Assembly: GCA_964591715.1 (NCBI GenBank) | Contig: CAZQDR010000003.1 | Location: 269 to 64,268 of the forward strand | DNA length: 64,000 nucleotides | Source: an uncultured Candidatus Saccharibacteria bacterium | GTDB lineage: Bacteria > Patescibacteriota > Minisyncoccia > Phycocordibacterales > JACOZG01 | Reading direction: 5' to 3' | Shown here: piece by piece, positions 5,678-40,579 of the stretch | How the letters are laid out: every line of letters starts with the position of its first letter | Numbering within the stretch: the first letter of the stretch is position 1 | The notes under the pieces: generated by a model | What the model saw: the letters and a program-made list of their open reading frames with translations, nothing else | Databases searched by the model: none | Told to the model about the DNA's origin: nothing | Program-made: the position numbers and the translations under genes

Positions 5678-6934
5678 TCAAAATATTTCATGCCACAATC
5701 TTTGCCACCACGACGGGTCAGTTGGGAGTTCGACCATGGTCGCAGTGGCCGCCGGCAGTGAGCTTACTGACGGCGGTAAGTCTATTGTAGCAGTTTCTAA
5801 AACGACTGGCACCACTGTCGCTTCATAATCAGGCGATACTGCTACGGGTAGCGCTGGTGGGGCCAGAGATTGGAGTTGCCGCGCGAGCAAGGCGAGCGCG
5901 GCTCCTTGGGTATTCGTTTCCGCATAGACTCGCCCGTTCGGGGCCGCCAGCGACAACTGGTTCGCTACAGTCAAAAAAGGAATTTTAACGGAGCTGGCAC
6001 TATTCAAAATCGTATCTTCCGGCAGGATGATTTTTTTCTTGCTGTCGCCCAACTGCCAATTCCCTACATTTACCTCATAGTTAGAATTATTTTTTAATTC
6101 GACATAGGCTTGATCACCATCATTACCCGCCCTAATAGCTAGGACTGGTTCAACCACCGTAATTACCGTCCGCGCCACCGCCTCGTCACTACCCTGCCGA
6201 ACCGTTGCCACCACGTTATAAGTGCCCGGGAAGGCGTACTGGTGATCAACCACCTCGCGATAGGCGGCGACACCATCACCAAAGCTCCAGTGATACTCAA
6301 TTGGCGCCGCGTCATCAGCACCACTAACCACTGCCCGGAAGGGCAGTCCCGCCCCCACCGCCACTTGCCGCTTGCGACCAATTGATAATCCCAGCCCTAA
6401 TTTCTCCTTCGGATTAGAGAGGGCGACCTGACTTTGATGACTGGAGCTAATACCACCCGAAGTGGCCGTGCTACCAACAACACTTACGGCGGGTTCCTCA
6501 TCTGGGTCCGAGTCGCCGCCCGCGGCCGCGGGCGGCGCGTCCGCGCTCACCGTAATTGGCTGCGAGGTTTGCCAGCTTTGACCACTCGTGCGCCCGGTTA
6601 CCACCACCTTAATGGTATACGAACCGGCCGTGGAATCGCGGTAGAGAAAATTGCGATTGGCCGAATTTTTGCTCATTGTTGTCGTTACCGGATTACCGCT
6701 AGTACTTAAAAATTCGCCCGTCGCTGACGTACTGGTAAAAGTCAGATCAGCCGTCTCGGTAATATTTTCTTTAACTCCCGCATTATTTTGGGTTTGCACG
6801 GTAATCGTCGCCGAACTCGCCCCTGGCGCAATCGTTTGCGGCTCGGTAGTAAAGACCACTCCCGCTACCTCTGCCCGCACCAAAACCGGCAGGAGGAGGA
6901 TGAGTCCCACTGCCATCACGTGTTTGTAGTTCAT
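5678..6934 (-). CDS. Secreted protein with Ig-like, PKD and lamin-tail (LTD) domains
   Basis: Signal peptide; PKD signature YHWSFGDG...HQYAFPGTYNVVATV; LTD signature AYVELKNNSNYEVNVGNWQLGD. Confidence 0.6.
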   Translation of the reverse strand: MNYKHVMAVGLILLLPVLVRAEVAGVVFTTEPQTIAPGASSATITVQTQNNAGVKENITETADLTFTSTSATGEFLSTSGNPVTTTMSKNSANRNFLYRDSTAGSYTIKVVVTGRTSGQSWQTSQPITVSADAPPAAAGGDSDPDEEPAVSVVGSTATSGGISSSHQSQVALSNPKEKLGLGLSIGRKRQVAVGAGLPFRAVVSGADDAAPIEYHWSFGDGVAAYREVVDHQYAFPGTYNVVATVRQGSDEAVARTVITVVEPVLAIRAGNDGDQAYVELKNNSNYEVNVGNWQLGDSKKKIILPEDTILNSASSVKIPFLTVANQLSLAAPNGRVYAETNTQGAALALLARQLQSLAPPALPVAVSPDYEATVVPVVLETATIDLPPSVSSLPAATATMVELPTDPSWWQRLWHEIF

Positions 6935-6937
6935 GGT

Positions 6938-7912
6938 TTAGTAACTTATTTGATCAACCAACAGACCGCTCTGGTCATAAAGACTGATTGTCTCGCGCTC
7001 CTTACCCCAGAGCTCATAACCTAAATTGAGATAAATATACCACGACTGACTGTAAAAGTCGCGCTCGCTTCGACTGCGATCCAGGCAAGCAGTATAGCTG
7101 TAATTTTGTTTGAGAAAATCCTTGCAGCGGGATGACAAGTTAGGTGTCTTATCCACAAAACCTGACTGCAATTCACCAGAGGAATCGCGAACTGATCCAA
7201 AAACTGGCGCGTGACAATATCCCAACCGCCTCACAAAGTTGTAACAGTCATCCTCCAGATTATCCACGCCAGCCACCTTGCTTGGCGTTGGGCAACGCGA
7301 GGAAATGGGTGGCGTAAACTGGTAACTAGGCAAATCTTCCAAATAACCGCTACACATATTAACTTTAAAACTAACGTCAATCGGATAAGGTGTCAGCGTG
7401 GGCATCCGACCAGTAATAATGTTGGCGTGATCCCCCCGCTCCAAAACAATGGGCTGCAAAATTTTAGCGGCGCGCGGATCGAAGAGTTTGACTCCGGAAG
7501 GGATGGCAGCGGTCGGGGCCTGATAGGCTACTTTTTGCTTGCTGTTTACCAACTTCCAACCCGTAATCGTTACCGGCTCTTGGGCTCGCGAGGTCAGTCG
7601 AATATACTCCTTCGCTGGCTGGACCTCATTGCGCGCACTGCCTAGAGAAATCTGAACTTGATCATACCAAATCGAGCGAGTCGGATCGCCCGACTTCGAA
7701 CCGGCACTGGAACTATTGGGGGTAACGGCGGAACCGGAGCTCGAGGGATAATTGCTCGGGCGAGCGGATACCCGGCTTTTCGACTCAAGGGGTGACTGGA
7801 TGAACGGCTTCTCTGTCGTTGATCGATTAGGACCACCAGTAAAAAGCCAAATGAAGCCGAGCGCCACAAAAATCCCAATCACCCACAGTAAATCGCGAAC
7901 CGCTTCACTCAT
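6938..7912 (-). CDS. Membrane-anchored protein with an LTD-like domain and a Cys-rich C-terminal domain
   Basis: N-terminal TM helix, LTD-like EYIRLTSRAQEPVTITGWKLVN, and 6 Cys in the C-terminal third. Confidence 0.5.
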   Translation of the reverse strand: MSEAVRDLLWVIGIFVALGFIWLFTGGPNRSTTEKPFIQSPLESKSRVSARPSNYPSSSGSAVTPNSSSAGSKSGDPTRSIWYDQVQISLGSARNEVQPAKEYIRLTSRAQEPVTITGWKLVNSKQKVAYQAPTAAIPSGVKLFDPRAAKILQPIVLERGDHANIITGRMPTLTPYPIDVSFKVNMCSGYLEDLPSYQFTPPISSRCPTPSKVAGVDNLEDDCYNFVRRLGYCHAPVFGSVRDSSGELQSGFVDKTPNLSSRCKDFLKQNYSYTACLDRSRSERDFYSQSWYIYLNLGYELWGKERETISLYDQSGLLVDQISY

Positions 7913-7952
7913 AATAAATTATTGTACCATGAGCTGGTTTTTCCGCGCACAC

Positions 7953-7982
7953 AAAAACACCCCGCCGAGGCGGGGTGTTTTT
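7953..7982 (-). terminator. Intrinsic terminator (bidirectional shape)
   Basis: ACACCCCGCC-GA-GGCGGGGTGT stem flanked by A5 and T5. Confidence 0.7.
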
Positions 7983-8031
7983 GATTAGCGATCCGATCAG
8001 CCAAACGCTGACGTCGGAAAGTTAAAGTTAC

Positions 8032-10020
8032 TTACTGAGGCAACGAAACCGTACCAGTTCTCCAGTCGGTCAAACCGGCCATGAAGGTGCTGGTGTTTAC
8101 ATCACTACCATTCAATGACGATTTGATTGCTTCGACACCAACCGCGTATGAGTCGAGGGTCGTAATACCCGCAACACCAGCCGCAGATTTGTCCAAGAAG
8201 GTGAAGGTAACCGGAATAGTTACATCATTACCGTCGGTGATCTTAGCCTTCTGGCCAGTAAGGAGGCCAGTAGTGATCACGCCAGCGTTTGAAGGAATAG
8301 TGAAGTCCGTCGTTGAAGCAACTGGGAAGGCCGTAAGCGTACCACCCTTGTAGATACCTAAGACAAAGGTAGAGGAAGCTGACTGCGTTCCGAGGTAAAC
8401 GTCAGAACCAACCGCCTTAACGTTAACGTTGAACTTGGCAGTAACCGTCGTAGTAGCGCGGCCATTACCATCATTGTTGGTCTCAGCAGTAATCGTAGGC
8501 GAACCAACGATAGTAAACTGAGGACCAGCACTGACAATGTACATCGTGTTACCAGCGGCGCTGCCTGACTTGTCGGTGATTACATCACCAACAGTGTTCT
8601 CAACCGTAACATCGGCATTAGCAACAGAAACGCTAATTGGCGAGGCTACAGAAGTTGCGCGGCGGACATCAGCCTTGATCGTAAGGGTCTTGGTAGAGTC
8701 CTTGGCAATCAAAACATCCAAGTCCGAGAAGGTGGCACGAGTGGTACCAGTCTCAGCACTGTCAATCTCGGTGGAACCGTCGTAGAGATAGATAGTAGTG
8801 GTGGTAGCACCGGCACCAGAAACCGTCGAGCTAGCGAGAGTAACAGTCAAGTCAGTCATGGTCAAATCATCCTTCTTGGCTTTGAGATCAAAGGTCAAGA
8901 GAGACAACTTGTTGTACTCGTTATCATTGCTGCCATCCGTAGCCGCAATCTGGCCAGAGAGAGGGTTGCTGCCACTGGCAGAAACCGTCAATGAAGCAGC
9001 GTCGGTTAGGGAAGAATCAACATTGATAGCACGGCTAACTGAGGAACCCGTAGCTGGGGAGTACTGGTCAATGCCAGCGCCATCCATACCGCGGATACCA
9101 TCATTAGCTAACTGAACCGTGTAAGTCTCGGTGTCAATATCGGTTGAATCGATACTGTCGCGAACGTCAGCCTTGATCGTCAAAATCTTGCTGGAGTTCT
9201 TTGGAACAACCAGGTTGATTCCGGCCAAAGTGATGTAGTAGCGCCCACCATCCTTAACTACCGTTGAGGAGTTAAGATCAGCAGAAGCCAAAACAGTTGA
9301 ACCATCCGTCACATAGACCTTTTGATAGATCTTGTTGTAGATAGCCGTTGAAGCACCGAGGTCTAACTTGACACGCTGGATAGCAATGTCTGAGTTCTTA
9401 GCCTCAACCTTGAAACCAAGGATTGCTGCCATGTCATCTCCTTCGTAAATCGTTGAGTTAACACCGACACTTGAAGAAGTAACAGAAAGCGTACCCTCGA
9501 TACCAGGAGTGGTGATCGTGCCTGTGCAGGAAGCACCCGTAACTGGATTAACTACCCAACCAGCCTGGCAACCAGAAGTGGTGGTCGTAGTGGTGGTCGT
9601 AGTCGTAGTACCACCCATCATCGCGTTGATAGCGGCGCGGGTCTGAGGACCAACCTGACCGACTTGGGCAATGCCCTTAGCGGCCTGGAAGGCTAGAACA
9701 GCGGCCTTGGTCTGTGCACCAAAGTAACCCGTTGGACCAGCTGGAATCGTATAACCATTACCTTGCAAGAAGTTCTGCAAAGCAGTAACTTCAGCGCCCC
9801 TGCTACCTACAGCCAACTGTTGGGTAAGCATTGCTGAACCAGTCGTGCTCGTGTTGCTACCACCCAAAAGAGCGGTCAACGATTGGAGCAAAGCTGGGTT
9901 AGCGGTCAAAGCGGCCATGATCTGATTAGCAGTCAAGGTCTCGGCGCCAGCGATCGAAACCGTCGCGCTCAAGGCCAAGGCTACTACAGCCAAGCCAACA
10001 AATAATTTCTTAATACTCAT
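8032..10020 (-). CDS. Large secreted surface protein: PG-binding domain, poly-Thr linker, repeated Ig-like modules
   Basis: Signal peptide; PG_binding_1-like GSRGAEVTALQNFLQGNGY...GAQTKAAVLAFQ; a T9 linker; and two copies of ...KTLTIKADVR... modules. Confidence 0.6.
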   Translation of the reverse strand: MSIKKLFVGLAVVALALSATVSIAGAETLTANQIMAALTANPALLQSLTALLGGSNTSTTGSAMLTQQLAVGSRGAEVTALQNFLQGNGYTIPAGPTGYFGAQTKAAVLAFQAAKGIAQVGQVGPQTRAAINAMMGGTTTTTTTTTTTSGCQAGWVVNPVTGASCTGTITTPGIEGTLSVTSSSVGVNSTIYEGDDMAAILGFKVEAKNSDIAIQRVKLDLGASTAIYNKIYQKVYVTDGSTVLASADLNSSTVVKDGGRYYITLAGINLVVPKNSSKILTIKADVRDSIDSTDIDTETYTVQLANDGIRGMDGAGIDQYSPATGSSVSRAINVDSSLTDAASLTVSASGSNPLSGQIAATDGSNDNEYNKLSLLTFDLKAKKDDLTMTDLTVTLASSTVSGAGATTTTIYLYDGSTEIDSAETGTTRATFSDLDVLIAKDSTKTLTIKADVRRATSVASPISVSVANADVTVENTVGDVITDKSGSAAGNTMYIVSAGPQFTIVGSPTITAETNNDGNGRATTTVTAKFNVNVKAVGSDVYLGTQSASSTFVLGIYKGGTLTAFPVASTTDFTIPSNAGVITTGLLTGQKAKITDGNDVTIPVTFTFLDKSAAGVAGITTLDSYAVGVEAIKSSLNGSDVNTSTFMAGLTDWRTGTVSLPQ

Positions 10021-25791: not shown

Positions 25792-26376
25792 TTAGAGGTG
25801 ACTGTGGTGTAAGGCTTGATTAATAATTTCGAGCGCCAGCTGCTGGCGCTCGGCCGACAACTCGAGCGGCGCCATGTCCCAGTCGTTGAAAGCAAAAATG
25901 ACCTCGAGCTCCGGGCGCTCCTCTACATAACCCAAACGGCGCAAAAGCCGCGCCACCCAAATTAGCTCAAAATTGACTAGCTCCGCTTCGGTCAAAAAAG
26001 GTCGTTCCAAAAAATGGGCTCCGCTTTTAAACTCCTCAAAAAAATCGGGCTGGGCCACTTCACCGGTTACTAAGCGCAAAATCAGTTGGGCAACCCGGGC
26101 CAGGAGCTGCAGGCGCACCGCTTCGCGGTGCGCCGCCAATTCCCCCGCCTCAACATGCACCACGCGCCAGACCTCCCGGCCTCGCACCAACGAGACCTCC
26201 GGCCAACTAAATAATTGCAGATTATAACGGAGCTTAGACTTTAATTCCCGCAAACCTTGGGCGGTAGCGTTAACCAAACCGTGATCACGCGTATACAAAG
26301 TCAGCGTCCGGGTTGCTTCGCTCGCCTCTCGGACACCCAACACGACCGCTGGCGTGGTGTAAATTTGATGCGACAT
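25792..26376 (-). CDS. recO: DNA repair protein RecO (short form)
   Basis: N-terminal OB-like TPAVVLGVREASEATRTLTLYTRDHGLVNATAQGLRELKSKLR. The start overlaps the ileS stop (TAATG). Confidence 0.6.
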   Translation of the reverse strand: MSHQIYTTPAVVLGVREASEATRTLTLYTRDHGLVNATAQGLRELKSKLRYNLQLFSWPEVSLVRGREVWRVVHVEAGELAAHREAVRLQLLARVAQLILRLVTGEVAQPDFFEEFKSGAHFLERPFLTEAELVNFELIWVARLLRRLGYVEERPELEVIFAFNDWDMAPLELSAERQQLALEIINQALHHSHL

Positions 26377-29300
26377 TATTCGTAACGAAAAGCGCTCGCG
26401 CAGGTCGCGACTTTTATTTCGTGCTCATACTTCTCGGCCAAGCTCTGTTTGGCAATCGGTATAACCACTTCCGCTTGTTCTCCTGCCTTCAAGCCGCTTT
26501 CTTTACGCCAATCCTGAATTTCGCGAATCAAATCGCGCAGTTCCCCCTCCTCCTTAAGTTCAGGAGTGATAGTCAAATCAAGTTCTACCACTGCCGACAA
26601 GTTAGGATCAAAGATTACCGCTTTAACATTTACTTCGTCTTGGATAAGTTGAGCCAGTTCAGCGGAGAGCGGAGCACTTTTGGCTTTAAGTTCTTTTAGT
26701 GGTTGGCGAACTTTAATCGCGGCTTTGGCTCGCGCCTCTAAGCCACCCGAGACGAGCTGGCGCACGAGTTGCATCGCGGTAATAATTTCTTCGTCGCTCT
26801 TGTCGGCCTCGGGCCAATGCTCTAAGTGCACGCTCTCCGCGCCACCTTTCAATTTCAAATAAATTTCCTCAGCAACAAAGGGCGTAAATGGGGCCATCAA
26901 GCACGACAACACCAACAGCGTCCGGCGGAGCGTATCCATCACTGCCTGCGCCTCAGCGGGATCAGTGGGCTTAAAGCGATCGCGCGACCGGCGTAAATAC
27001 CAAGTTGATAAATCGTCCACAAATTCGTCGATGGGCCGCAAAGCCCGATCAAGCTCATAAGACTCCATCGCCGCTGTTACTAATCCAATCACTTCGTTAA
27101 GCCGGTCGTTAATCCAACGATCTAAAATATGAGTACTAGCGGCATCGCTCGGAACGTGGGCGCCGGCGTACAGTTCATAAAACGCCACCACGTTCCGCAG
27201 ACGGCCCAGCACCCGATTACTGGTCTCGCGCAAACCACGCTCCGAAAAATTAAATTCTTCAGCATGTACCGCTGGTGATGAGAGCAAGTAAAAACGCAAC
27301 GCGTCCGCGCCAAAAGTATCAATCGTGGGTTCCAGATCGGGATAATTTTTTAGACGCTTAGACATCTTTTGGCCATCCTCGGCTAAAATCAAACCATTCA
27401 CTACGACACGCTTAAAGGGGGGGCGATTAAAAAGTCCCAGCGAGAGCACCAGCAAAACATAAAACCAGCCGCGAGTTTGATCCAAACCTTCGGCAATAAA
27501 GTCCGCGGGAAAATGCTTTTCAAACTCTTCCTTGTTGGCAAACGGATAATGTAACTGGCCGTAAGGCATGGAACCGGACTCAAACCACACATCAAAAACA
27601 TCGGGTACGCGCGCCATCTCGGCACCACACTCGCAACGGAGTTTAACCTCATCAATATACGGCCGGTGAAAGTCGAGCTCGTAGGCTTGATTGTGCGGGA
27701 GAGCGACAAAGGGCAGTGGTCGCGATTCGGCGGTTTTTAAAAAGTAACGATCCTCACTCTGCGCGGCTTCGGCCTCGTGATCATTAAAGCCTTGGGCTCC
27801 CACCATCAATAACCAGCCCACCGCTTCGTGAGTGATCAGTAAAATATTTTTACCCGCATAACGAGCGTCAATCTCATACAGCGACTGGAGCGCCCGCGCC
27901 TTCACCTCATGAAAGTTTTCCCCCGCTGGTGGCGCCTTAGTAAAGCGCTCGGCTCGACCACTGAAAAAAGCGTGGAACTTAGCCACCGACCCCCCCTCCA
28001 ATTCGCCAAAGCCCACCTCGCGCAGGCGCTCATCCAAAACCACTTGATCGGCCGGTACTCCTAAAGCCTCCGCCATGAGCGCCGCCGTCTCTCGTGTTCG
28101 CAAAACTGGCGAAGTAATGATCAGATCAATTTTTTCCTTAGCCAAAGTTTTACCGGTGGCTTCTACTTGCTCACGGCCATTTTCCGTTAAATGATTGTCG
28201 CCATCGAGCGCCGAGGTAACAATGCTTTGTACGTTCGACTGGGCCTCGCCGTGACGCATGACCCAATAATTATTTTTTGGCTGCCGCTTAGCAGTGAGCT
28301 CCTCGAGTGAGCCAATCACTTCAATTTTTTTGCAGCTTTCGCAACGCCAGACCGGTAGCGGCGCCCCCCAGTAACGCGAACGCGATACTGCCCAATCGCG
28401 CGCCCCCTCCAGCCATTTACCAAAGCGACCGTCTTTAATATATTCCGGCACCCAAGTTACGCCCTCGTTTGCCTTCAAGAGTGCCTCCTTCATCGTACTT
28501 ACAGCAATAAACCAGGATGATGACGCGTAGTTTAAGAGAGGTGTATCGCAACGCCAACAATGAGGGTAGGGGTGAGTAATTTTTTCCTTCGCAAAAAAGG
28601 TGCCATGCTCCTGCAAATATTTTAAGACTGCAATGTCAGCCGAGAGACGCTCCTTCTCATCTTCACTCTTGGGTTTAACTGGCAGACCGGCAAAATCTTT
28701 GACCGCCGCTTTAAAGTGACCGCTAGTATCAACGTGCTGGATAAAAGGTAAATTTTTAGCCTGACCCAACTTTAAGTCGTCCTCGCCGAATGCCGGTGCA
28801 ATATGGACAATGCCGGTACCATCCTCGGTTGTCACAAAATCCGCGCCGTAAACCTGCCAACCGTTCTCCTTATTTTTCAGCGTCGTATCATTCTGATAAT
28901 AATCAAAAACTGGTTGATACTTTTTACCCACCAATTTTTGTCCGGTAAATGTTTCTTCAATGGTAAAATTATCGGTTAAAACTTTTGTGGCCAGCGCCTC
29001 CGCCACAATCAACTTAATTCCGCCCTTTTCGACTCGAACATAGTTCAGTTCGGGATTAACCGCCAGCGCCACATTACCTGGCAGCGTCCAAGGTGTCGTG
29101 GTCCAGGCCAACAAGTAAGTCCCCGGCTCATCAACCAGTTCAAATTTTACCGTCACCGACAAATCCGTGACATCTTTGTAACCCTGATTAACCTCAAAGT
29201 TAGCCAGCGTTGTCTCACAGCGCGGGCACAAATGCATAGACTTGTAACCTTCGTAGGCCAAGCCCTTGTCGTAGAGTTGTTTAAAAATCCACCACACCGT

Positions 29301-29771
29301 CTCGGTGTAACTGGAGTCCATCGTTTTATAATCGTTCTCCATGTCCACAAAACGGCCAATGCGGGGAATAATCCTTTTCCACTCGTCAGCATAACGGAGC
29401 ACGCTCTCTCGTGCCTTTTGGTTAAAGACGTCAATCCCCAACGCTTCAATATCCTTTTTGGTTTTTAGACCCAACTCTTTCTCGATCAGGTTCTCGATCG
29501 GCAAGCCGTGACAATCCCAACCCCAGCGACGCGCCACTCTAAAGCCGCGCATGGTTTGATAGCGTGGAATAGCGTCTTTAATCGAGGTCGGCAGCAAGTG
29601 ACCAAAGTGAGGCAAACCGGTCGCAAAGGGCGGCCCATCATAAAAAACGTACTCGCCTTTGGGCGCATCTTTAGCCAGGGACTTGGCGAAAATTTGGTGA
29701 TCTTGCCAGAACTTAAGGATCTCTTCCTCGCGTTTGGCAACATCGGATTTTTGGGGCAGAGCTTCGGCCAT
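26376..29771 (-). CDS. ileS: Isoleucyl-tRNA synthetase with an inserted histidine-phosphatase domain
   Basis: PPFATGLPHFGHLL (HIGH region), the editing-domain WTTTPWTLPGN, and KMSKRLKN. The ~195-aa insert carries RHGE...SPVLRTRETA...THE motifs; see findings. Confidence 0.9.
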   Translation of the reverse strand: MAEALPQKSDVAKREEEILKFWQDHQIFAKSLAKDAPKGEYVFYDGPPFATGLPHFGHLLPTSIKDAIPRYQTMRGFRVARRWGWDCHGLPIENLIEKELGLKTKKDIEALGIDVFNQKARESVLRYADEWKRIIPRIGRFVDMENDYKTMDSSYTETVWWIFKQLYDKGLAYEGYKSMHLCPRCETTLANFEVNQGYKDVTDLSVTVKFELVDEPGTYLLAWTTTPWTLPGNVALAVNPELNYVRVEKGGIKLIVAEALATKVLTDNFTIEETFTGQKLVGKKYQPVFDYYQNDTTLKNKENGWQVYGADFVTTEDGTGIVHIAPAFGEDDLKLGQAKNLPFIQHVDTSGHFKAAVKDFAGLPVKPKSEDEKERLSADIAVLKYLQEHGTFFAKEKITHPYPHCWRCDTPLLNYASSSWFIAVSTMKEALLKANEGVTWVPEYIKDGRFGKWLEGARDWAVSRSRYWGAPLPVWRCESCKKIEVIGSLEELTAKRQPKNNYWVMRHGEAQSNVQSIVTSALDGDNHLTENGREQVEATGKTLAKEKIDLIITSPVLRTRETAALMAEALGVPADQVVLDERLREVGFGELEGGSVAKFHAFFSGRAERFTKAPPAGENFHEVKARALQSLYEIDARYAGKNILLITHEAVGWLLMVGAQGFNDHEAEAAQSEDRYFLKTAESRPLPFVALPHNQAYELDFHRPYIDEVKLRCECGAEMARVPDVFDVWFESGSMPYGQLHYPFANKEEFEKHFPADFIAEGLDQTRGWFYVLLVLSLGLFNRPPFKRVVVNGLILAEDGQKMSKRLKNYPDLEPTIDTFGADALRFYLLSSPAVHAEEFNFSERGLRETSNRVLGRLRNVVAFYELYAGAHVPSDAASTHILDRWINDRLNEVIGLVTAAMESYELDRALRPIDEFVDDLSTWYLRRSRDRFKPTDPAEAQAVMDTLRRTLLVLSCLMAPFTPFVAEEIYLKLKGGAESVHLEHWPEADKSDEEIITAMQLVRQLVSGGLEARAKAAIKVRQPLKELKAKSAPLSAELAQLIQDEVNVKAVIFDPNLSAVVELDLTITPELKEEGELRDLIREIQDWRKESGLKAGEQAEVVIPIAKQSLAEKYEHEIKVATCASAFRYE

Positions 29772-33073: not shown

Positions 33074-33502
33074 CTACTTGCGGCCCGTGCTACCAAAAGC
33101 ACTGGTGCCCCGAGAAGAATCGGCCAGTTCAGCGGCTTCTTCCAACTCGGCGACCGCGACGGGATAAATGATAAGTTGAGCCACCTTATCCCCCACTTCA
33201 ACGGTATATGCCTTGTCGCTCAAATTAACCAAGTGAACATTATACTCGCCGCGATAACCAGCATCGAACACGCCACCCATGGTATGTAATCCTGCTTTAG
33301 AGATACTCCCCTTGTCTTTAATAATCGCCGCATAACCAGCTGGGAACTCTAAGGCAAAACCCAAATGGAATCGCGCGTGATCACCCGGCAGAATAGTTTG
33401 TTCTTCTAGAGCATACAAATCTAATCCGGCGTCTCCAGGATGACCATAGGTTGGCTGCTTTGCTTCCGGCTTTAATTTTTTAAACTTTATGGACAGGGAC
33501 AT
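33074..33502 (-). CDS. dut: dUTP diphosphatase (trimeric dUTPase)
   Basis: GDAGLDLYA, GVFDAGYRGE, and the C-terminal RGTSAFGSTG motif. Confidence 0.9.
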   Translation of the reverse strand: MSLSIKFKKLKPEAKQPTYGHPGDAGLDLYALEEQTILPGDHARFHLGFALEFPAGYAAIIKDKGSISKAGLHTMGGVFDAGYRGEYNVHLVNLSDKAYTVEVGDKVAQLIIYPVAVAELEEAAELADSSRGTSAFGSTGRK

Positions 33503-34187
33503 GTTTCTTCACTAATTTATAAACTTGCTCATGGACCGCTTCGGGCGTTTGGCAAACCATTCCGGCACAACACTCAATGCGGCGCCACTTTTTATCTTTC
33601 TCGGCTAAGGCCAGCGCGCTCTGGCGCGAATTTTTAAGATGGAGCAGATTATCCTCGGCAACATCTTTGCGGCCCTTTAAATATTTCTTACGGCGCTTGG
33701 CGATCTTTTTCTCAAGCCACAGCTTACTCACCTCAAATGGCACGTCTAAATAAATCACCAAATCTGGTTTGGGAATTTTAAAAACGCCGTACTCCATTTT
33801 ATCAAGCCAAGTTAAAAACTCCTGACGCTTTTTAGGATCAGCGATTTTGCCACCCTGGTGGATTTGGTTAGCACTGACATAACGATCAGCGACAACAACA
33901 AAGCCAGCCGCGAGCCACTCTTTAATTTTGGCACTAGTCTCAAAACGGTCCGCGGCATAGAGCACTGAGGCTAGGCGTGGATCAGCCTGAATAAAATCAC
34001 CATGGAGTCCGGAAAGATATTCGCCAATTAAAGCGCCAAAAAAATTATCATAATAACGAGGGAAGTCGATCGTTTTAACCGGCACCTTCTCTTTTTTCAA
34101 CCGGTCAGCTAAAAGTTTAGTTTGCGTCGCCTTGCCTGAACCATCAATCCCGTCAATCACCACTAACCGTCCTGCCGTTTTAGTCAT
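33480..34187 (-). CDS. tmk: Thymidylate kinase
   Basis: VVIDGIDGSGKATQTKLL P-loop and the DRY motif (VADRYVSAN). Confidence 0.85.
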   Translation of the reverse strand: MTKTAGRLVVIDGIDGSGKATQTKLLADRLKKEKVPVKTIDFPRYYDNFFGALIGEYLSGLHGDFIQADPRLASVLYAADRFETSAKIKEWLAAGFVVVADRYVSANQIHQGGKIADPKKRQEFLTWLDKMEYGVFKIPKPDLVIYLDVPFEVSKLWLEKKIAKRRKKYLKGRKDVAEDNLLHLKNSRQSALALAEKDKKWRRIECCAGMVCQTPEAVHEQVYKLVKKHVPVHKV

Positions 34188-35445
34188 TTTGTTTTTTAAT
34201 TTTTCTTAAAATTTGATCAATCTTGCCGGCCAATATTTTTACCTGTTTTTCTTTGGCACCGCGGGTAGTCTCGGCCGCTAAACCAATCCGGATTCCCGAC
34301 GGGTCAACGGGCGGCCGAGTATCAAAAGGAATCGCATTTTTGTTCACAATAATCCCCGCCTGCTCTAGCGCCTCACTCGCTGCCTGACCACCAACACCGA
34401 CGCCGTTTAACCAAGTGTCCAGCAAGATCAAGTGGGTGTCGGTGCCATCACTGACTAGCCGCCAGCCCAGCTTCTTTAACTCCATTGCTAGCGTTTTGGT
34501 GTTCTTGATAATTTGAGTGGCGTACTTCTTAAACGCCGGCGTGGCTGCCTCGGCAAGCGCCACCGCCACGCCGGCAATTTGGTTAACATGCGGCCCCCCT
34601 TGGATACCCGGGAAAACCGCTTTATCTATTAAGTCAGAAATAAGCTTCGGTTCGGGCGCAGACTTTCTTCCATCACGGTCAACGAGGGAAATGATTCCAG
34701 AAAGCCCGCGCCCAACCTGCGCCGGTACCCGCCGGCTGAAGATTAATGCCGCTCTCGGACCACGCAAAGTTTTGTGGGTGGTAGTGGTCACGACGTCAGC
34801 GTATGGGAAAGGGCTCGGATGGACGCCCGCGGCCACCAGACCAGCAATGTGCGACATGTCTACCATCAGGATTGCTCCGCAGGCGTCGGCAATCTCGCGA
34901 AACTTTTTGAAATTAATCTGACGCGGATAAGCCGTAAAACCGGCGACAATAATATTTGGTTTTTCTTTAACTGCCAAAACTTTAACCGCTTCGTAATCTA
35001 ACTGTTCACTATCACGGTCAACGGTAAACGGGATTTGCTGCCAGGCTTTGCCAGTTAGGGAGACTTTGTGACCGTGCGTTAAATGACCGCCATGCGCTAG
35101 CGACATGCCCATAATTTTCCCCCCGATTGGGACGAGCGCAGTGTACACCGCCAAGTTGGCCGGTGAACCAGAAAGCGGCTGAACATTCACGGCCCACTTC
35201 TTTGGGCTAAGTTTAAAAAGTTTCAGCGCTCGTTCTTGGCAAAGTCGCTCTACCTGATCAATGATTTTATTGCCGCCATAATAACGCGCGCCCGGATAAC
35301 CCTCGGCATACTTATTATTTAATTCCGAACCCAGCGCCGCCAAAACATCGGCGGAAACATAGTTCTCTGACGCAATTAAATTAACTACCTTCTGTTGTCG
35401 CTCTCGCTCGGCCTTGATCAATCGTTCAATCGGTTTATCTTTCAT
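34180..35445 (-). CDS. glyA: Serine hydroxymethyltransferase
   Basis: NLIASENYVS and the PLP-lysine segment VVTTTTHKTLRGPR. Confidence 0.95.
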   Translation of the reverse strand: MKDKPIERLIKAERERQQKVVNLIASENYVSADVLAALGSELNNKYAEGYPGARYYGGNKIIDQVERLCQERALKLFKLSPKKWAVNVQPLSGSPANLAVYTALVPIGGKIMGMSLAHGGHLTHGHKVSLTGKAWQQIPFTVDRDSEQLDYEAVKVLAVKEKPNIIVAGFTAYPRQINFKKFREIADACGAILMVDMSHIAGLVAAGVHPSPFPYADVVTTTTHKTLRGPRAALIFSRRVPAQVGRGLSGIISLVDRDGRKSAPEPKLISDLIDKAVFPGIQGGPHVNQIAGVAVALAEAATPAFKKYATQIIKNTKTLAMELKKLGWRLVSDGTDTHLILLDTWLNGVGVGGQAASEALEQAGIIVNKNAIPFDTRPPVDPSGIRIGLAAETTRGAKEKQVKILAGKIDQILRKIKKQND

Positions 35446-35454
35446 GTTTAAGAT

Positions 35455-35943
35455 TTATTTTTTACGACTGCCGTGGAATCTGAGATGGGCATCATCCGTA
35501 ACATACAGCGTTTTTATCCCCGCCTCCAGCATCCGCTCCCAGCAAGGTTGGCAGGCCCACCAGTGACCCCACAAATAGACTTCCGCCCCCGCGGTGACTT
35601 CCCCATTTTTTATTGCATCCGCCACGGCTCGTGATTCTGAGTGAAGCTTGTAATTAGAGCACCCCGGACAAAGCCAATACTTTTGGCCAGTTTTAATTTT
35701 TAACTTGTGCCGGACACACCAACCCTTGGTGTGAAGATCAGCCAAAAAAGCATTCTTTAGTGCTGATTGATTGGCTCCCCGACCGATAATTTTACCGCCC
35801 TCAACAACCACCGCCCCACTTGGCTGATTACGTTCCGTGGCCGACTGAAAACGCATTTTCTTGGCTTCAGCCATAAATTGGTCCGTCTCAGGCACCAACT
35901 TAATCTCGCAACCAGCAGGCAAATAAGGGTAGATAATCGTCAT
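35455..35943 (-). CDS. Cytidine/deoxycytidylate deaminase-fold zinc enzyme (dCMP deaminase-like) with an extra Cys-rich insert
   Basis: An HSE zinc/catalytic motif (KLHSESRAV) and PCxxC (CQPCWERM). The insert is CVRHKLKIKTGQKYWLCPGC. Confidence 0.65.
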   Translation of the reverse strand: MTIIYPYLPAGCEIKLVPETDQFMAEAKKMRFQSATERNQPSGAVVVEGGKIIGRGANQSALKNAFLADLHTKGWCVRHKLKIKTGQKYWLCPGCSNYKLHSESRAVADAIKNGEVTAGAEVYLWGHWWACQPCWERMLEAGIKTLYVTDDAHLRFHGSRKK

Positions 35944-35967
35944 GTGGCCATTGTCTCATAGCTCTAG

Positions 35968-35973
35968 TATAAT
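35968..35973 (+). promoter_or_regulatory. -10 element TATAAT 9 nt upstream of the thyA-like ATG
   Basis: Read directly. Only a weak -35 (TGGCCA at 17 nt) is present, and there is no SD. Confidence 0.4.
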
Positions 35974-35982
35974 TGGCAAAAT

Positions 35983-36819
35983 ATGACCGCCTTTGACCGA
36001 ATCTACCAGAATCTGTTAAGGCAAATCATGACCGAGGGCATTGCGGAAATGAGCGAGCGCACCGGCCACGAAACCCGGGCCATCCCCGGCCTCCACTTTA
36101 CGACCGACCTCCAAAAAGACGGCTTCCCCCTACTTACCCTGCGCAAAATACCAATTCGGGTCTTCGTGGCCGAGCAAATTTGGTTTCTCCTTGGCTCGCG
36201 CAAACCAGCCGACTTTCTGCGGGAGTACACTAAAATTTGGGATGACTTTACCAACCCAGGCGATGTCGTCACGGTCGCTTACGGTTACCGTTGGCGCAAA
36301 CATTTTGGCCGCGATCAAATCGCCCTGTTGATTGAACTTTTAACCAAGGAGCCAAGTTCGCGCCACGGCGTCGTAATTGCTTGGGATCCAGCCCAGGATG
36401 GCTTGTCGCTGTTTAAAAAGAAAAACGTCCCCTGTCCCTACACCTTTACCGTTAATATTATTGGCGGACACCTCCATCTCCACAACATGATTCGCTCTAA
36501 CGACGTCATGCTCGGCATGCCTCACGACGTGGCGGGCTTTGCTTTGCTCCAGTGCATTTTAGCCGAACGATTAGGAGTAAAGCCGGGCATTTACTCGCAC
36601 TCTATTTCTAACGCTCATGTTTACGACATTCACTACTCAGCCGCGGAAGAAATAATTAGCCGCCACAACGATCATCCTAATGTGACACTCGAGATTCCCG
36701 CCAACACCTTTGCCCGGATCGAGAACCGCGACCCGGCGATAGCCAAAGAACTAATCGATCAACTGACTAACCAGTACACACCAATGGATGCCATTAAAGG
36801 TTTACAAATTGTCCTCTAA
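35983..36819 (+). CDS. Thymidylate-synthase-family C5-pyrimidine transferase with Asp at the base-specificity position
   Basis: ThyA-like motifs DRTG-like ERTGHET, FPLLTLRK, YGYRWR, DQI, SSRHGVVIAWDP, PCP (Cys151), and RSNDVMLGMPHDVAGF (Asp182). Confidence 0.8.
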   Translation: MTAFDRIYQNLLRQIMTEGIAEMSERTGHETRAIPGLHFTTDLQKDGFPLLTLRKIPIRVFVAEQIWFLLGSRKPADFLREYTKIWDDFTNPGDVVTVAYGYRWRKHFGRDQIALLIELLTKEPSSRHGVVIAWDPAQDGLSLFKKKNVPCPYTFTVNIIGGHLHLHNMIRSNDVMLGMPHDVAGFALLQCILAERLGVKPGIYSHSISNAHVYDIHYSAAEEIISRHNDHPNVTLEIPANTFARIENRDPAIAKELIDQLTNQYTPMDAIKGLQIVL

Positions 36820-37316
36820 TGATTCCAGCGTTTATTATTGCCAGCGTGACCGCCGACGGCCTGATTGCCCGTGATGCTAGTCACGCGGCCACCTGGTCCA
36901 GCCAAGCTGATAAAAAGTTTTTTGTGACCCGAACCAAAGCCGCTGGTGCGATCATTATGGGCGCTAAAACTTTTGCCACTATTGGCCGACCCCTCCCAGA
37001 ACGCTTAAATGTGGTTTACACCCATCAACCTTCACCTCACCCTGAAGTCTTGGCCACCGCTTTGCCGCCAGCGGAACTACTGGCGGAACTTGAGCGCCGG
37101 GGCATTAGGGAGGCGGCCATTTGCGGGGGCAGTTCAATTTATACGCTCTTTCTTAAGGCCGGCCTGGTCCAGAAAATTTATTTAACTGTTGAACCACGCC
37201 TCTTCGGCCAAGGCCTCTCGCTTTTTAATCAGGAACTGGACCTCACCCTCAAGCTTTTGTCGACTCAACAATTAGCCCCAGACGTCGTATTATTGGAGTA
37301 TCAAGTAATCACCTAA
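36819..37316 (+). CDS. RibD C-terminal / DHFR-fold reductase
   Basis: IIASVTADGLIA...IIMGAKTF...GGSSIY pattern. Coupled to the upstream gene by a TAATG overlap. Confidence 0.6.
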   Translation: MIPAFIIASVTADGLIARDASHAATWSSQADKKFFVTRTKAAGAIIMGAKTFATIGRPLPERLNVVYTHQPSPHPEVLATALPPAELLAELERRGIREAAICGGSSIYTLFLKAGLVQKIYLTVEPRLFGQGLSLFNQELDLTLKLLSTQQLAPDVVLLEYQVIT

Positions 37317-37318
37317 TC

Positions 37319-37960
37319 ATGGCTGTTATCACCAAAGAAGACATTATCGAACGAATCAAGGGAGGGAGCTTAAAGTTTGTCCCCAATCTCGACGTCTTCC
37401 AGCTTCAAAGCCACTCGGTTGACTTGCGGCTGGGCTTTACTTTTATGCTGCCCAAGATTTGGCATCTCACTACCCGCGGCCGCGAGTCACTCGACATCCT
37501 CCATTTTGATAAACGGACTCAAGAATATTTTGATATCGTAGAACTAGAGGAGGGTCAATACTTTGATCTCTTGCCTCAAGAATATATTTTGGTTTCCACC
37601 CTCGAGACTTTAACTGTCCCTAAAGATTTGATGGCTGTGCTTTATCCGCGCTCCTCGACCAATCGCAAAGGTTTGTCGCTCGACTTAACGGGCATTATTG
37701 ATTCGGGTTACGAAGGCCAGCTAAGCTTACCGATTCGCAATAATACTCGTTCGCAAACAGTGCGACTTTATCCGGGCGAGCGTCTCTGCCAAGTGGTTTT
37801 TGAAGAACTAACCCAAACAATTAACCCGCGCCAAAGTAAGTATCACCAGCGTGACATCATTGACGGCGTTCAGCGCGAAGCCGAAACGGAAGTTAAGTTG
37901 TTGTTAGCCGGAAAAATAAAAGAGTTAAAGCGTGACCACGCTGTCGAGGGCTTGATATAG
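37319..37960 (+). CDS. dCTP deaminase/dUTPase-fold protein lacking the deaminase Glu
   Basis: SVDLRLG, PRSSTNRKGL, and IIDSGYEGQLSLPIRN. Pro138 sits where E. coli Dcd has Glu138. Confidence 0.7.
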   Translation: MAVITKEDIIERIKGGSLKFVPNLDVFQLQSHSVDLRLGFTFMLPKIWHLTTRGRESLDILHFDKRTQEYFDIVELEEGQYFDLLPQEYILVSTLETLTVPKDLMAVLYPRSSTNRKGLSLDLTGIIDSGYEGQLSLPIRNNTRSQTVRLYPGERLCQVVFEELTQTINPRQSKYHQRDIIDGVQREAETEVKLLLAGKIKELKRDHAVEGLI

Positions 37961-38470
37961 CTCTTCCACCTCGCCATTGTTATTGATCACCACCGAAGCG
38001 GCGTCTTTAAGCGACCGGATTTGAATCTCGGTTTCCAGTTGCTGATCTTTTTGAAATTGCTCCCAAGTTTTGCCGTTATCATCTGGATTCTCACCGCGAA
38101 CTGATAAACGCTTAAATCGAACCTCCGGGTCAGCCTCAAGATAAATTAATTTAAATTGGGGTAACTTTTGGAGAGCCTTAATGTCAGGCAAGCGACGGAT
38201 ACCATCAATGACCACCAGATCAGTCTTGGCGCCCGCCGCGTCCTTGGCCACTATCTCGGAAAATAAATCTTCGCCGAAGGTCTGGCGCAAGGCCAGCGAC
38301 AGTGCCGACATGTTCTCTCGCGTCTCGGTTAGATACAAGCGAGCCATAACGTCGCGCAGTGGCGTAGAAAAGCGATACGACTCGGCGTTAAACTTTTTAG
38401 CTAAATATTTCGTACTGAACGTCTTTCCTGAAGCCATCTCCCCCGTCAAACCAATAATTAATTTAGCCAT
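37925..38470 (-). CDS. P-loop nucleotide kinase (dNMP-kinase / CoaE-like)
   Basis: GLTGEMASGKT P-loop, YRFSTPLRDVMA, VIDGIRR, and terminal VINNNGEVEELY. This resembles T4 gp1-type dNMP kinases, from memory. The 3' end overlaps the convergent dcd-like gene by 36 nt. Confidence 0.5.
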   Translation of the reverse strand: MAKLIIGLTGEMASGKTFSTKYLAKKFNAESYRFSTPLRDVMARLYLTETRENMSALSLALRQTFGEDLFSEIVAKDAAGAKTDLVVIDGIRRLPDIKALQKLPQFKLIYLEADPEVRFKRLSVRGENPDDNGKTWEQFQKDQQLETEIQIRSLKDAASVVINNNGEVEELYQALDSVVTL

Positions 38471-38518: not shown

Positions 38519-40579
38519 TTAGCGGGCAGATTGAGCGCTCAGTCGGGCTTGAAATAAGCGGAGCAGAAGCTGGAGCGCCGGAGTGGAGGTCGCTGTCGGA
38601 GCCATGGTTGGAACCAAGACTGGCGATCCCACTGTTGCGGTTGGAGCATACACCTCATTGAGTTTGGCGAGCGTCTTAGGCCCTACCGCTCCCGCTGTCA
38701 CCGGCTCAGTAATCTGGTATTTCAACTGAAAGCGCTTTATCGCCTGAGAAGTAAGTGGCCCATAATAACCACTGACAATTGCCTCGGGATAGATTGTTCT
38801 ATCTTTCGCCAAGTACTGCTGCAAAATCTTAACTTGCTCACCGCGCGCCGCTGGCGCTAGCGCCGCCGTAAAGATTGGTGCCGCCCGGACAGCGGTCGGA
38901 GTACTGCGCGCCACTTCGCTACTTCGATTATTACTAACCCCCGATCCCCCACCACCCCCACCGCTGCGGCTACTGCCGCCCCCACCAACTGGGCGGGGTG
39001 GTGGTTCCGTCGGCACCACGGGTGTATCCGGCGCCACTGGCGTATCCACTGTCTCGCCAGGCGTAAAGGTCACTCGCAGCAAATATTGTGTTCGCACATC
39101 CGACAGCAAATAAGAAATTTTACCCTTCGCCACCGGTAGCGAGGTTGTGGCTTGAGCAACGCCATCAAGGCTAATCGTCGCCAACTGATAACCCGGCTTG
39201 GGGGTAATAGTGAAAAGTTGAGAGCCACCTTCCGGTACCGCAACCGTTCCAGGTGAAATACTTCCTCGCGTTGCCATCACGCCAATTAGTAAAACATTTA
39301 TATTGCGCATTGGTTGTCCGGCATCACTAAAAGTATTACGAACAGACATTCGGTCTTGAGCGATCTTTTGACTACGGACTGCACCATAGCGAATATTTCT
39401 AAAAGTGTTGTCGCTTGACTGCACCAAGGTAATCCCATTTTTAGCTGTGATTGAAATAATATTTTCGATTGTGCTACTTGAGGTGTACCCCAGATAGATT
39501 TCGTTAATCTGAGAATCGCGAACAGTAATGTTGCTGCAGTGCGTACAAATGAAAGCCGCCAAATCTAAACCACTAAATATTTTGTCTGAAATATCAGCAT
39601 AGTAAGCAACATCCTTACCCGCCACGGAATTGTTGGTGAAGTTATTGGTAAAGCCTTGGGGCTGATCGCCGATCGTCGTCTGATCCCAGTAAAAATTAAA
39701 ATCCTCGTTAAGGTTATCGTAAATCTGATTACCTGAAATAAGATTGTTATTGGTGCGCTTGGCACCGTAGCCATAACCGACCACCGTCCCAGCTTCCCAG
39801 CGGCGATAATGGGCGCGCAACAAATTTACAATAAAGCCAGATTTGTTATTGCGGATAATATTATCCTGGTACTCGCTGTGACTAGCCATAATCCTCATGC
39901 CCTCCACGCTGCTGTTCTCAATTATGTTGCGATTAATCTTCTGCCTATCTGGCCAAATGGCAGTTAAATCAGTTGTCCACATTGCCTGCAAACCCGGCGC
40001 GATGCCATATTGGCTGCCAGAAATTAAGTTGTCCGAGATCTCAATCCGCGGCGTTTCGTCGAGCATAATATTGGCGTCGGAGTTGTCGCGGATAATATTG
40101 TGGGAAATTAAAATATCACCGCTGGCGTACGTGGCCACCCCCATTCGGTTGTTATAAATCTCGCTGTCGAGTAAGGTAAAACCGTTACCACCACCACTGT
40201 GATGGACCCCGAATTCAAAGTCATGGACCTTACAATTCTTTATTAGCCTGATTGCTCGCGAGTCGTTAACCACAATACCCCGACCAGTTTTATTATTTCC
40301 CGCAATTTCAAAATTTGCACAATCAAGGGTGGGCGCATCCTTCCCCGGCTGACGCAGTCCCAAGGCCAGACCGTCAGCCGGGCAGGCTGTCTCACCACTG
40401 CGACCCCGCAAATTTTCAGTCAGAGTGTAATCGCCAATGATGGTATCACCGCAATAACAGGGTACCACCACGCCATTAATTAAGCCGCATTCAGTAACTG
40501 CGGCCATAACAGTTCGCCAGCCAAAAAGCAGCCCTGACACTAAAACCAGCATCCCGATACCATTGATGAGTTTGTTCAT
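38519..40579 (-). CDS. Secreted right-handed beta-helix (PbH1/NosD-like) protein with a Gly-rich linker and a C-terminal PG-binding domain
   Basis: Signal anchor; repeated NxIxxN beta-helix rungs (ISHNIIRDN, ISDNLISGS, INRNIIENS, YQDNIIRNN); a GGGGSSRSGGGGGGSG linker; and PG_binding_1-like GEQVKILQQYL...GPLTSQAIKRFQ. Confidence 0.65.
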   Translation of the reverse strand: MNKLINGIGMLVLVSGLLFGWRTVMAAVTECGLINGVVVPCYCGDTIIGDYTLTENLRGRSGETACPADGLALGLRQPGKDAPTLDCANFEIAGNNKTGRGIVVNDSRAIRLIKNCKVHDFEFGVHHSGGGNGFTLLDSEIYNNRMGVATYASGDILISHNIIRDNSDANIMLDETPRIEISDNLISGSQYGIAPGLQAMWTTDLTAIWPDRQKINRNIIENSSVEGMRIMASHSEYQDNIIRNNKSGFIVNLLRAHYRRWEAGTVVGYGYGAKRTNNNLISGNQIYDNLNEDFNFYWDQTTIGDQPQGFTNNFTNNSVAGKDVAYYADISDKIFSGLDLAAFICTHCSNITVRDSQINEIYLGYTSSSTIENIISITAKNGITLVQSSDNTFRNIRYGAVRSQKIAQDRMSVRNTFSDAGQPMRNINVLLIGVMATRGSISPGTVAVPEGGSQLFTITPKPGYQLATISLDGVAQATTSLPVAKGKISYLLSDVRTQYLLRVTFTPGETVDTPVAPDTPVVPTEPPPRPVGGGGSSRSGGGGGGSGVSNNRSSEVARSTPTAVRAAPIFTAALAPAARGEQVKILQQYLAKDRTIYPEAIVSGYYGPLTSQAIKRFQLKYQITEPVTAGAVGPKTLAKLNEVYAPTATVGSPVLVPTMAPTATSTPALQLLLRLFQARLSAQSAR

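Follow-up and report, generated by a model that had tools for sequence, protein, structure and literature searches.

Thymidylate synthesis is treated as universal: deoxyuridine monophosphate (dUMP) is methylated by the thymidylate synthase (TS) ThyA or by ThyX. All characterised members of the ThyA family obey one rule for the base that they bind, an Asn at the specificity position (N177 in Escherichia coli ThyA, whose numbering is used below with the prefix Ec) going with uracil and an Asp with cytosine. The TS homologue of phage Xp12 has been shown experimentally to convert deoxycytidine monophosphate (dCMP) to 5-methyl-dCMP, and this enzyme and five metagenomic relatives, chosen for their Asp177, brought 5-methyl-deoxycytidine (5-methyl-dC) into DNA when expressed with a deoxynucleoside monophosphate (dNMP) kinase. 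Among the other cytosine-specific members, the hydroxymethylases carry Asp or Glu at Ec143 and are without the C-terminal tail, the 5-hydroxy-dCMP synthases of the RB69/DLP3 type have Asn at Ec169, and the enzymes specific for cytidine monophosphate (CMP), MilA and BcmA, have Ala at Ec167 and Lys at Ec126. In the literature searched, Asp-type TS proteins are discussed only for phages, the thyA genes of the candidate phyla radiation (CPR) are treated as ordinary, and CPR folA is reported to complement E. coli; literature searches of incomplete coverage found no Asp-type ThyA or dCMP-methylase pathway in CPR/Patescibacteria. A ThyA-family gene with Asp at the specificity position is encoded in the 64,000-nucleotide stretch analysed here (contig CAZQDR010000003.1, positions 269 to 64,268 of the forward strand, hereafter the window).

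The enzyme is predicted to methylate dCMP, and we give an even chance to a pathway in which the textbook order is reversed, dCMP being methylated to 5-methyl-dCMP and only then deaminated to thymidine monophosphate (dTMP). The gene and the codons on which this reading turns are the following:

35983..36819, forward strand: Asp-type ThyA-family enzyme, predicted dCMP C5-methyltransferase, 278 amino acids (PF00303, TS fold)
36424..36426, forward strand: codon AAC of Asn148 (E. coli L143), the position tied to methyl versus hydroxymethyl product
36433..36438, forward strand: codons TGT CCC (TGT at 36433-36435) of the catalytic Cys151 and of Pro152 (E. coli C146 and H147)
36526..36528, forward strand: codon GAC of Asp182, aligned at the pyrimidine-specificity position (E. 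coli N177)

The protein belongs to the TS family by sequence and by fold. Indeed, it matches PF00303 (Thymidylat_synt) over residues 7-248 (E 9.9e-53, 179.4 bits against a cut-off of 24.3), and its AlphaFold model (predicted local distance difference test score, pLDDT, 81; predicted template modelling score, pTM, 0.83; low confidence in the loops 84-107 and 139-150) shows the TS fold, with Foldseek template modelling (TM) scores of 0.73-0.78 to the enzymes of E. coli, L. casei and E. faecalis. A first-pass annotation of this DNA, made from the letters alone, had noted the catalytic cysteine and a ThyA-like C-terminal tail, had placed an Asp where ThyA has its specificity Asn, and had predicted a cytosine-specific C5-transferase. 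These readings of the residues hold: Cys151 is present, the C-terminus and the ThyA tail align end-to-end, and HMMER pairwise alignments with four solved TS structures (3ix6, 6auj, 4h0r, 1tis) set RSNDVMLGMPHDVAGF of the protein against RSAD(I/V/M)FLG(V/L)PFNIASY, so that Asp182 falls on the specificity Asn in all four. A MAFFT alignment with E. coli ThyA agrees, and the residue at this position is Asp and not Asn. The sequences that served as references for E. coli ThyA and T4 dCMP hydroxymethylase agree with the T4 structure paper at 34 of 34 quoted residue numbers. Retained residues (E. coli numbers in brackets) include E64 (E58), Y100 (Y94), R127 (R126), R171, S172 and D174 (R166, S167 and D169), and H212 and Y214 (H207 and Y209); the cysteine and Ec Glu58, Tyr94, Arg166, Ser167, Asp169, His207 and Tyr209 are also present in 120/120 of the closest database homologues. 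In canonical TS, the shell around C5 and O4 of dUMP includes H147, Q165 and L143; here these residues are Pro, Ile and Asn, and W83 is replaced by Phe.

To judge from the homologous sequences, Asp182 is a class feature and not a chance single substitution. All of the 120 closest homologues (70-97% identity) come from Patescibacteria/Paceibacterota assemblies, and Asp at Ec177, Asn at Ec143 and the equivalent of Asp174 are each found in 120/120 of them, Pro at Ec147 in 118/120. Both Asp codons are used in the 78 syntenic loci (GAT in 49, GAC in 29), which argues that the amino acid is maintained by selection. A HMMER search of 1.84 billion cluster representatives (50% identity) was used for a wider sample, the nearest 150 being taken, of which 134 were full-length; about 115 of these 134 carry the Asp, and the canonical combination of Leu143, His147 and Asn177 is confined to the more distant matches. 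Asp at Ec177 switches together with W83 to F, L143 to N, H147 to P and Q165 to I, L or M, and the protein studied here has the Asp-class state at every one of these positions, whereas the Asn177-type representatives keep His147 (19/19), Leu143 (17/19), Trp83 (18/19) and Gln165 (14/19). In a published genotype-phenotype screen, positions 177 and 147 were those that best told apart phage contigs whose cytosine is modified and those in which it is not. The phylogeny that had been proposed as a check on the first-pass annotation bears it out. In a bootstrapped neighbour-joining tree of Kimura-corrected identity distances, the canonical L-H-x-N group is monophyletic (84% bootstrap) and the protein lies outside it, with the Asp-type members including Xp12; the Asp-type radiation itself is poorly resolved, and a sister relation between the CPR clade and Xp12 is therefore not claimed.

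TS homologues are present in 3481 phage records, and those that match the protein best belong to Xp12, PaMx74, PaMx28, Bosa and DLP4, with their relatives. These Xp12-like matches reach 36-40% identity (E 1e-45 to 1e-54, 169-194 bits), as against 127 bits for the best solved canonical TS. The Xp12 enzyme itself is about 37% identical over 89% of the protein, has a TS-like C-terminal extension as well, and shares with it the motifs AYGYRWR(K/R)HFGRDQ, AWDPA.DGL...KNVPCP and RS.D..G.P.DV, which E. coli ThyA does not have. The two agree at Ec83 (F), Ec143 (N), Ec147 (P), Ec169 (D) and Ec177 (D), and differ at Ec165 (Ile here, Leu in Xp12) and at residue 168 (Asn here, Ser in Xp12). E. coli ThyA, about 30% identical, has the same fold, dimer-type architecture, catalytic residues, tail and genomic coupling to a dihydrofolate reductase (DHFR), but differs at N177, H147, L143, Q165 and W83. 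T4 gp42 resembles the protein in its specificity Asp, which the first-pass annotation had already pointed out and which the alignment displays together with the RSND motif, and in having a residue other than His after the catalytic Cys; it differs in Asp145 at Ec143, Val at Ec83 and the lack of a C-terminal tail. The resulting four-residue signatures are N148-P152-N173-D182 here, N-P-S-D in Xp12, L-H-C-N in E. coli and D-T-N-D in the T4 type.

The residues were also compared with the diagnostic positions of each cytosine-specific type: (i) for the Xp12 type, Asp stands at Ec177 (D182), Asp169 is kept (D174) and Ec143 is non-acidic (N148); (ii) for the T4-type dCMP hydroxymethylases, Ec143 is Asn148 and the tail is present; (iii) for the 5-hydroxy-dCMP synthases, Ec169 is Asp174, as it is in 120/120 homologues; (iv) for MilA/BcmA, the residues are Ser172 and Arg127. 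Types (ii) to (iv) were set aside and type (i) was retained. The most specific prediction from sequence is the reaction of dCMP and methylene-tetrahydrofolate (methylene-THF) to 5-methyl-dCMP and dihydrofolate, and the cytosine specificity put forward in the first-pass annotation is thereby supported at the level of sequence. Reductive chemistry, with dihydrofolate as product, is predicted from the ThyA-like tail and from the coupled Xp12-homologous DHFR: T4 dCMP hydroxymethylase yields THF and has no need of a DHFR, and a coupled DHFR is expected only where dihydrofolate is produced.

The genes around the ThyA-family gene are, in order along the window:

33074..33502, reverse strand: canonical trimeric dUTPase (TIGR00576, 111.9 against a cut-off of 102.55)
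33480..34187, reverse strand: dTMP kinase (PF02223, dTMP kinase models)
34180..35445, reverse strand: serine hydroxymethyltransferase (SHMT), which regenerates methylene-THF (PF00464, E 2e-158)
35455..35943, reverse strand: zinc-dependent nucleotide deaminase, 162 amino acids (PF00383, E 1.7e-10)
35944..35982, no strand: 39-bp spacer between the divergent starts of the deaminase gene and thyA, containing TAGTATAATTGG
36819..37316, forward strand: DHFR-fold reductase, 165 amino acids, TAATG overlap with thyA (DHFR_1 E 3e-17, RibD_C E 3.5e-18)
37319..37960, forward strand: Dcd-family protein without the catalytic Glu (PF22769, TIGR02274)
37730..37732, forward strand: codon CCG of Pro138 at the Dcd catalytic-Glu position (E. 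coli E138)
37925..38470, reverse strand: phage-type dNMP-kinase-like P-loop kinase (PHROG 139, E 1.3e-18)

The TAATG coupling to a DHFR-fold gene, seen in the first pass, is present as the stop/start overlap CTCTAATGATT, and the DHFR is 28% identical to the DHFR-like protein of Xp12 (E 3e-11). In Xp12, the genes for the TS, a deaminase and a RibD_C-type DHFR stand in a row, the same trio as here. The two sets differ in other respects: the hydrolase partner has the Dcd/dUTPase fold here and belongs to the haloacid dehalogenase (HAD) superfamily upstream of the Xp12 TS (where related phages have a 'nucleotide pyrophosphohydrolase'); SHMT, dTMP kinase and dUTPase are additionally clustered here; the deaminase gene is divergently transcribed here; and this cluster lies on a cellular chromosome and is conserved across hundreds of species, whereas the Xp12 set is carried by a phage. 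The spacer element TAGTATAATTGG resembles a -10 box, from which the deaminase gene and thyA may share regulation. The 3' end of the dNMP-kinase-like gene overlaps that of the Dcd-like gene by 36 nt.

The conservation of the cluster was followed in a locus scan with one genome per species, in which relatives were found in 338 species and 80 loci were fetched and 83 examined. The relatives are named Taylor-, Adler-, Nomura-, Colwell-, Vogel-, Kaiser- and Doudnabacteria and Minisyncoccia, on contigs of up to 686 kb. The deaminase gene stands immediately upstream of the TS gene and divergent from it in 83/83 loci, the DHFR and Dcd-like genes follow the TS gene in nearly all, SHMT is upstream in most, and dTMP kinase is clustered in many. 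A canonical dUTPase co-occurs with the Dcd-like gene in at least 35/83 loci, and the dNMP-kinase-like gene is clustered in only 2/84 (the window and L050). A more distant relative (53% identity) retains the divergent deaminase, and in one protein (P0143, L086 8001-9302) an N-terminal dCMP-type deaminase is fused to an Asp-type TS, on a contig that also encodes a ribonucleotide reductase and a VanY-type peptidase. In another protein (P0157), the N-terminal part fused to the Asp-type TS is a MazG/PRA-PH pyrophosphohydrolase. The clade-wide housekeeping arrangement, the constant pairing with a deaminase and the Glu-less 'dCTP deaminase' neighbour go beyond what the first-pass annotation had described.

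The deaminase carries the zinc motifs HSE (101-103) and CQPC (131-134) and a second Cys/His cluster, and its H-x-E and C-x-x-C are invariant across the family. It is very divergent in sequence (best match in the PDB, E 0.002), and its model (pLDDT 90) has its best fold match in the dCMP/dCTP deaminase bi-DCD of PBCV-1 (7fh4), followed by other dCMP deaminases, with TM scores of about 0.5. According to a preprint, many phage deaminases encoded beside Asp-type TS genes deaminate 5-methyl-dC nucleotides; its proposal is that thymidine is drawn in this way from the 5-methyl-dC pool, as isotope labelling suggested for Xp12. The deaminase here, which is encoded in cis with an Asp-type TS as the mSCD-B5 class of phage deaminases is, and whose model has as its best match the PBCV-1 bi-DCD that the preprint gives as the closest structural relative of mSCD-B5, is predicted by this analogy to convert a 5-methyl-dC nucleotide to a thymidine nucleotide. 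Its similarity to the phage deaminases in sequence is very low: tblastn against phages gave one weak match and no PHROG match was found, which leaves the idea that the deaminase came from phages without support.

The Dcd-like protein shares with the Dcd and Dcd:Dut enzymes of E. coli, M. tuberculosis and M. jannaschii, and with archaeal-type dUTPases, its fold family, the R-S-S-x-x-R motif and a conserved Asp, both of which remain. In HMMER alignments with solved Dcd and Dcd:Dut structures, however, 'LPI' stands opposite 'LE(L/F)', and Pro138 thus takes the place of the catalytic Glu. Pro is found at this position in 81/81 syntenic orthologues and in 119/120 database homologues. All characterised Dcd enzymes have the catalytic Glu, and with Pro in its place dCTP deaminase activity is not expected; the classical step from dCTP to dUTP is consequently missing from the cluster. 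The protein still scores above the TIGR02274 cut-off, and public annotation names such Glu-less proteins 'dCTP deaminase'. The same variant adjoins the deaminase::TS fusion of L086 and the Asp-type TS of a phage-like contig (L092), and a pattern search of IMG/VR gave almost no close relatives. From its sequence, the protein is most likely a pyrimidine deoxynucleoside triphosphate (dNTP) diphosphatase, and its substrate may be either dCTP, in which case it would be a source of dCMP, or dUTP; the co-occurrence of a canonical dUTPase mildly argues for a role other than the latter.

Taken together, the favoured route, methylation first and deamination second, would proceed as follows. Cys151 would attack C6 of dCMP while Asp182 reads and protonates N3/N4 of the cytosine, and methylene-THF would give both the carbon and the hydride, yielding 5-methyl-dCMP and dihydrofolate. 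The divergent zinc deaminase would then turn the 5-methyl-dC nucleotide into a thymidine nucleotide, the coupled DHFR and the SHMT would recycle the folate, dTMP kinase would carry the product onward, and the Glu-less diphosphatase would supply dCMP from dCTP or clear dUTP. The dCMP methylase would in this way be the housekeeping entry to thymidylate in a large Paceibacterota lineage of ultra-small cells. Both enzymes of a path from cytosine to thymidylate, a C5-methylase and a deaminase, are present and inseparable in these loci, and it is the Asp and the residues that vary with it that argue for methylation of dCMP before deamination; the substrate, the product, the substrate of the deaminase and the mono- or triphosphate level of deamination are what we infer from these features.

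Several points weigh against this route. A canonical dUTPase is clustered, and the cell therefore makes dUMP, which on this route would have no obvious consumer. The ThyA-like protein is the only TS candidate seen in the cluster, and the Asp-bearing clade, as the only candidate seen, may itself be a bona fide TS. One curated thymidylate-synthase model is passed (TIGR03284, 125 against a cut-off of 108.35), while for TIGR03283 and for all six PRK01827/PRK13821 equivalogs the protein scores far under the cut-offs. The deaminase is only remotely similar to that of Xp12, and mSCD-B5, the one phage deaminase characterised in detail, acts on 5mdCTP and not on 5mdCMP. Since mSCD-B5 needs the triphosphate, the level at which deamination would occur here is uncertain; the clustered dTMP kinase, by contrast, suggests a monophosphate route. 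The Dcd-like protein may also be simply an archaeal-type dUTPase, its phage relatives being annotated either way. Finally, a protonated Asp can mimic Asn, and N229D/N177D mutants of TS reportedly keep some activity on dUMP.

The main alternative, which we consider unlikely, is an ordinary dUMP-to-dTMP synthase that works despite its Asp, with the deaminase making dUMP from dCMP and one or more dUTPases adding to it. The protein is the only TS homologue seen and sits amid a classical set of dUTPase, dTMP kinase, SHMT, DHFR and deaminase genes; its catalytic residues, its phosphate- and sugar-binding residues and its C-terminal tail are TS-like; it exceeds the TIGR03284 cut-off; Asn-to-Asp mutants reportedly retain part of their activity on dUMP; and without such a synthase dUMP would lead nowhere. 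As the first-pass annotation had reported, a second TS homologue was not found in the window by tblastn with E. coli ThyA, and a motif search for ThyX, which covered about 1.2 Mb around the clusters of the window and loci, returned only stop-broken frames and no intact motif. The rule that Asn reads uracil and Asp cytosine, obeyed by every characterised member, stands against an ordinary synthase, as does the invariance of the Asp together with the loss of H147, Q165 and L143 from the shell around C5 and O4 of dUMP. Furthermore, no canonical TS is as close to the protein as the validated dCMP methylases are, and the Dcd catalytic Glu is discarded in the same cluster, which removes the classical route of dUTP and dUMP supply.

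A methylation of dCMP could also serve DNA modification, as in Xp12: 5-methyl-dCMP would be phosphorylated and incorporated, part or all of the DNA cytosine would be 5-methylcytosine (5mC), the deaminase would divert part of the pool to thymidine and the Dcd-like protein, as a dCTPase, would exclude dCTP. As in Xp12, a nucleoside triphosphate hydrolase and a DHFR accompany the Asp-type TS and the deaminase; next to the cluster stands a phage-type dNMP kinase (PHROG 139) of the sort needed to bring 5mdCMP into E. coli DNA; members of these TS and deaminase families are found on phage-like contigs at 46-59% identity; and literature searches turned up no data on Paceibacterota DNA composition. 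This reading is nevertheless quite improbable. The kinase is clustered in only two of the 84 loci, the frequent clustering of dTMP kinase points to dTMP as the product, the dCTPase activity of the Dcd-like protein is only putative, and many of these genomes were assembled from ordinary short- or long-read data without any report of an anomaly that we could find. We know of no cellular genome in which a base is completely replaced. Chromosomal 5mC in place of much or all cytosine, by a complete phage-style pre-replicative pathway (dCTP hydrolase, methylase, kinase and deaminase branch), is accordingly rated as less probable still.

It is very unlikely that the product is another one, that is, that dCMP is modified to 5-hydroxymethyl-dCMP as by T4 gp42 or to 5-hydroxy-dCMP as by the RB69/DLP3 enzymes, or that CMP is used as by MilA. 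Asp182 and the 'RSND' motif are common to the T4 dCMP hydroxymethylase, and residue 148 is a polar Asn instead of the bulky hydrophobic residue thought to exclude water, but Ec143 is not acidic and the methyl-producing Xp12 enzyme has Asn there too. D169 is kept, whereas the 5-hydroxy-dCMP synthases have D169N; the tail that T4 dCMP hydroxymethylase lacks is present; a translationally coupled DHFR is needed only if dihydrofolate is made; and the T4-type D-T-N-D sequences form a separate branch. The first-pass preference for a methyl over a hydroxymethyl product is upheld by the non-acidic Ec143, the retained D169, the tail and the coupled DHFR, and for the substrate, given there as dCMP or CMP, Ser at Ec167 and Arg at Ec126 fit the published deoxyribose rule (Ala and Lys in MilA) and speak for dCMP. 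That the gene belongs to a phage or prophage, or that the window is a viral contig, which would make this a routine phage DNA-modification gene, has next to no probability: the closest characterised relatives are phage enzymes and IMG/VR homologues reach 46-59% identity, but the window has housekeeping content, the cluster has housekeeping flanks in an annotated related genome, contigs of related genomes extend to 686 kb and 338 species representatives have homologues, and a viral origin was rejected on gene content.

Indeed, the window encodes FtsK, RecA, EF-P, DinB, CdaA, an RND pump, a P-type ATPase, transporters and aminoacyl-tRNA synthetases (Met-, Ile-, Arg- and a class II enzyme), and in the annotated related locus the cluster lies between housekeeping genes (aminoacyl-tRNA synthetases, L11, NusG, SecE); by its sequence, the window is cellular and of Paceibacterota/Parcubacteria origin. 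Phage-like contigs of IMG/VR (L088-L093) encode TS proteins of the N-P-N-D type at 46-59% identity, several of them with the same deaminase family, beside a primase-helicase, a helicase, an endolysin, a ParB-like protein and an RNA ligase. This distribution suggests that the TS/deaminase module has been exchanged between Paceibacterota and their phages.

If methylation does precede deamination in these bacteria, cells would have a third way of making thymidine, in which dUMP is for the most part avoided; at least 338 species representatives have homologues. What has so far been a module of DNA-modifying phages alone would be housekeeping in cells, or the phage module would have come from such cells, and the names 'thymidylate synthase' and 'dCTP deaminase' would be wrong for thousands of entries in the databases. 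Unusual amounts of 5mC might occur in these uncultured bacteria, which would alter their behaviour in methylation-sensitive sequencing and restriction by hosts or phages; should the replacement of cytosine by 5mC prove true, a cellular lineage would for the first time be known to use a non-canonical base wholesale. A dCMP methylase, a likely 5-methyl-dC deaminase and a possible dCTPase would also be of practical interest for methylation-sequencing chemistry.

Some other features of the window were recorded. No tRNA or Rfam match was found in it. The isoleucyl-tRNA synthetase (IleRS; 26376-29771, reverse strand, 1131 amino acids) has a complete His_Phos_1 domain inserted at residues 503-667, and the same architecture is found in a 74%-related genome (L001 1400-4942). 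Directly downstream of the nucleotide cluster (38519-40579, reverse strand), a secreted-looking protein of 686 amino acids is encoded, in whose translation the N-terminal half is repetitive and is followed by a linker rich in Gly, Ser and Pro and by a C-terminal stretch. Other large open reading frames, with PKD/LTD or PG_binding domains, lie at 5678-10020.

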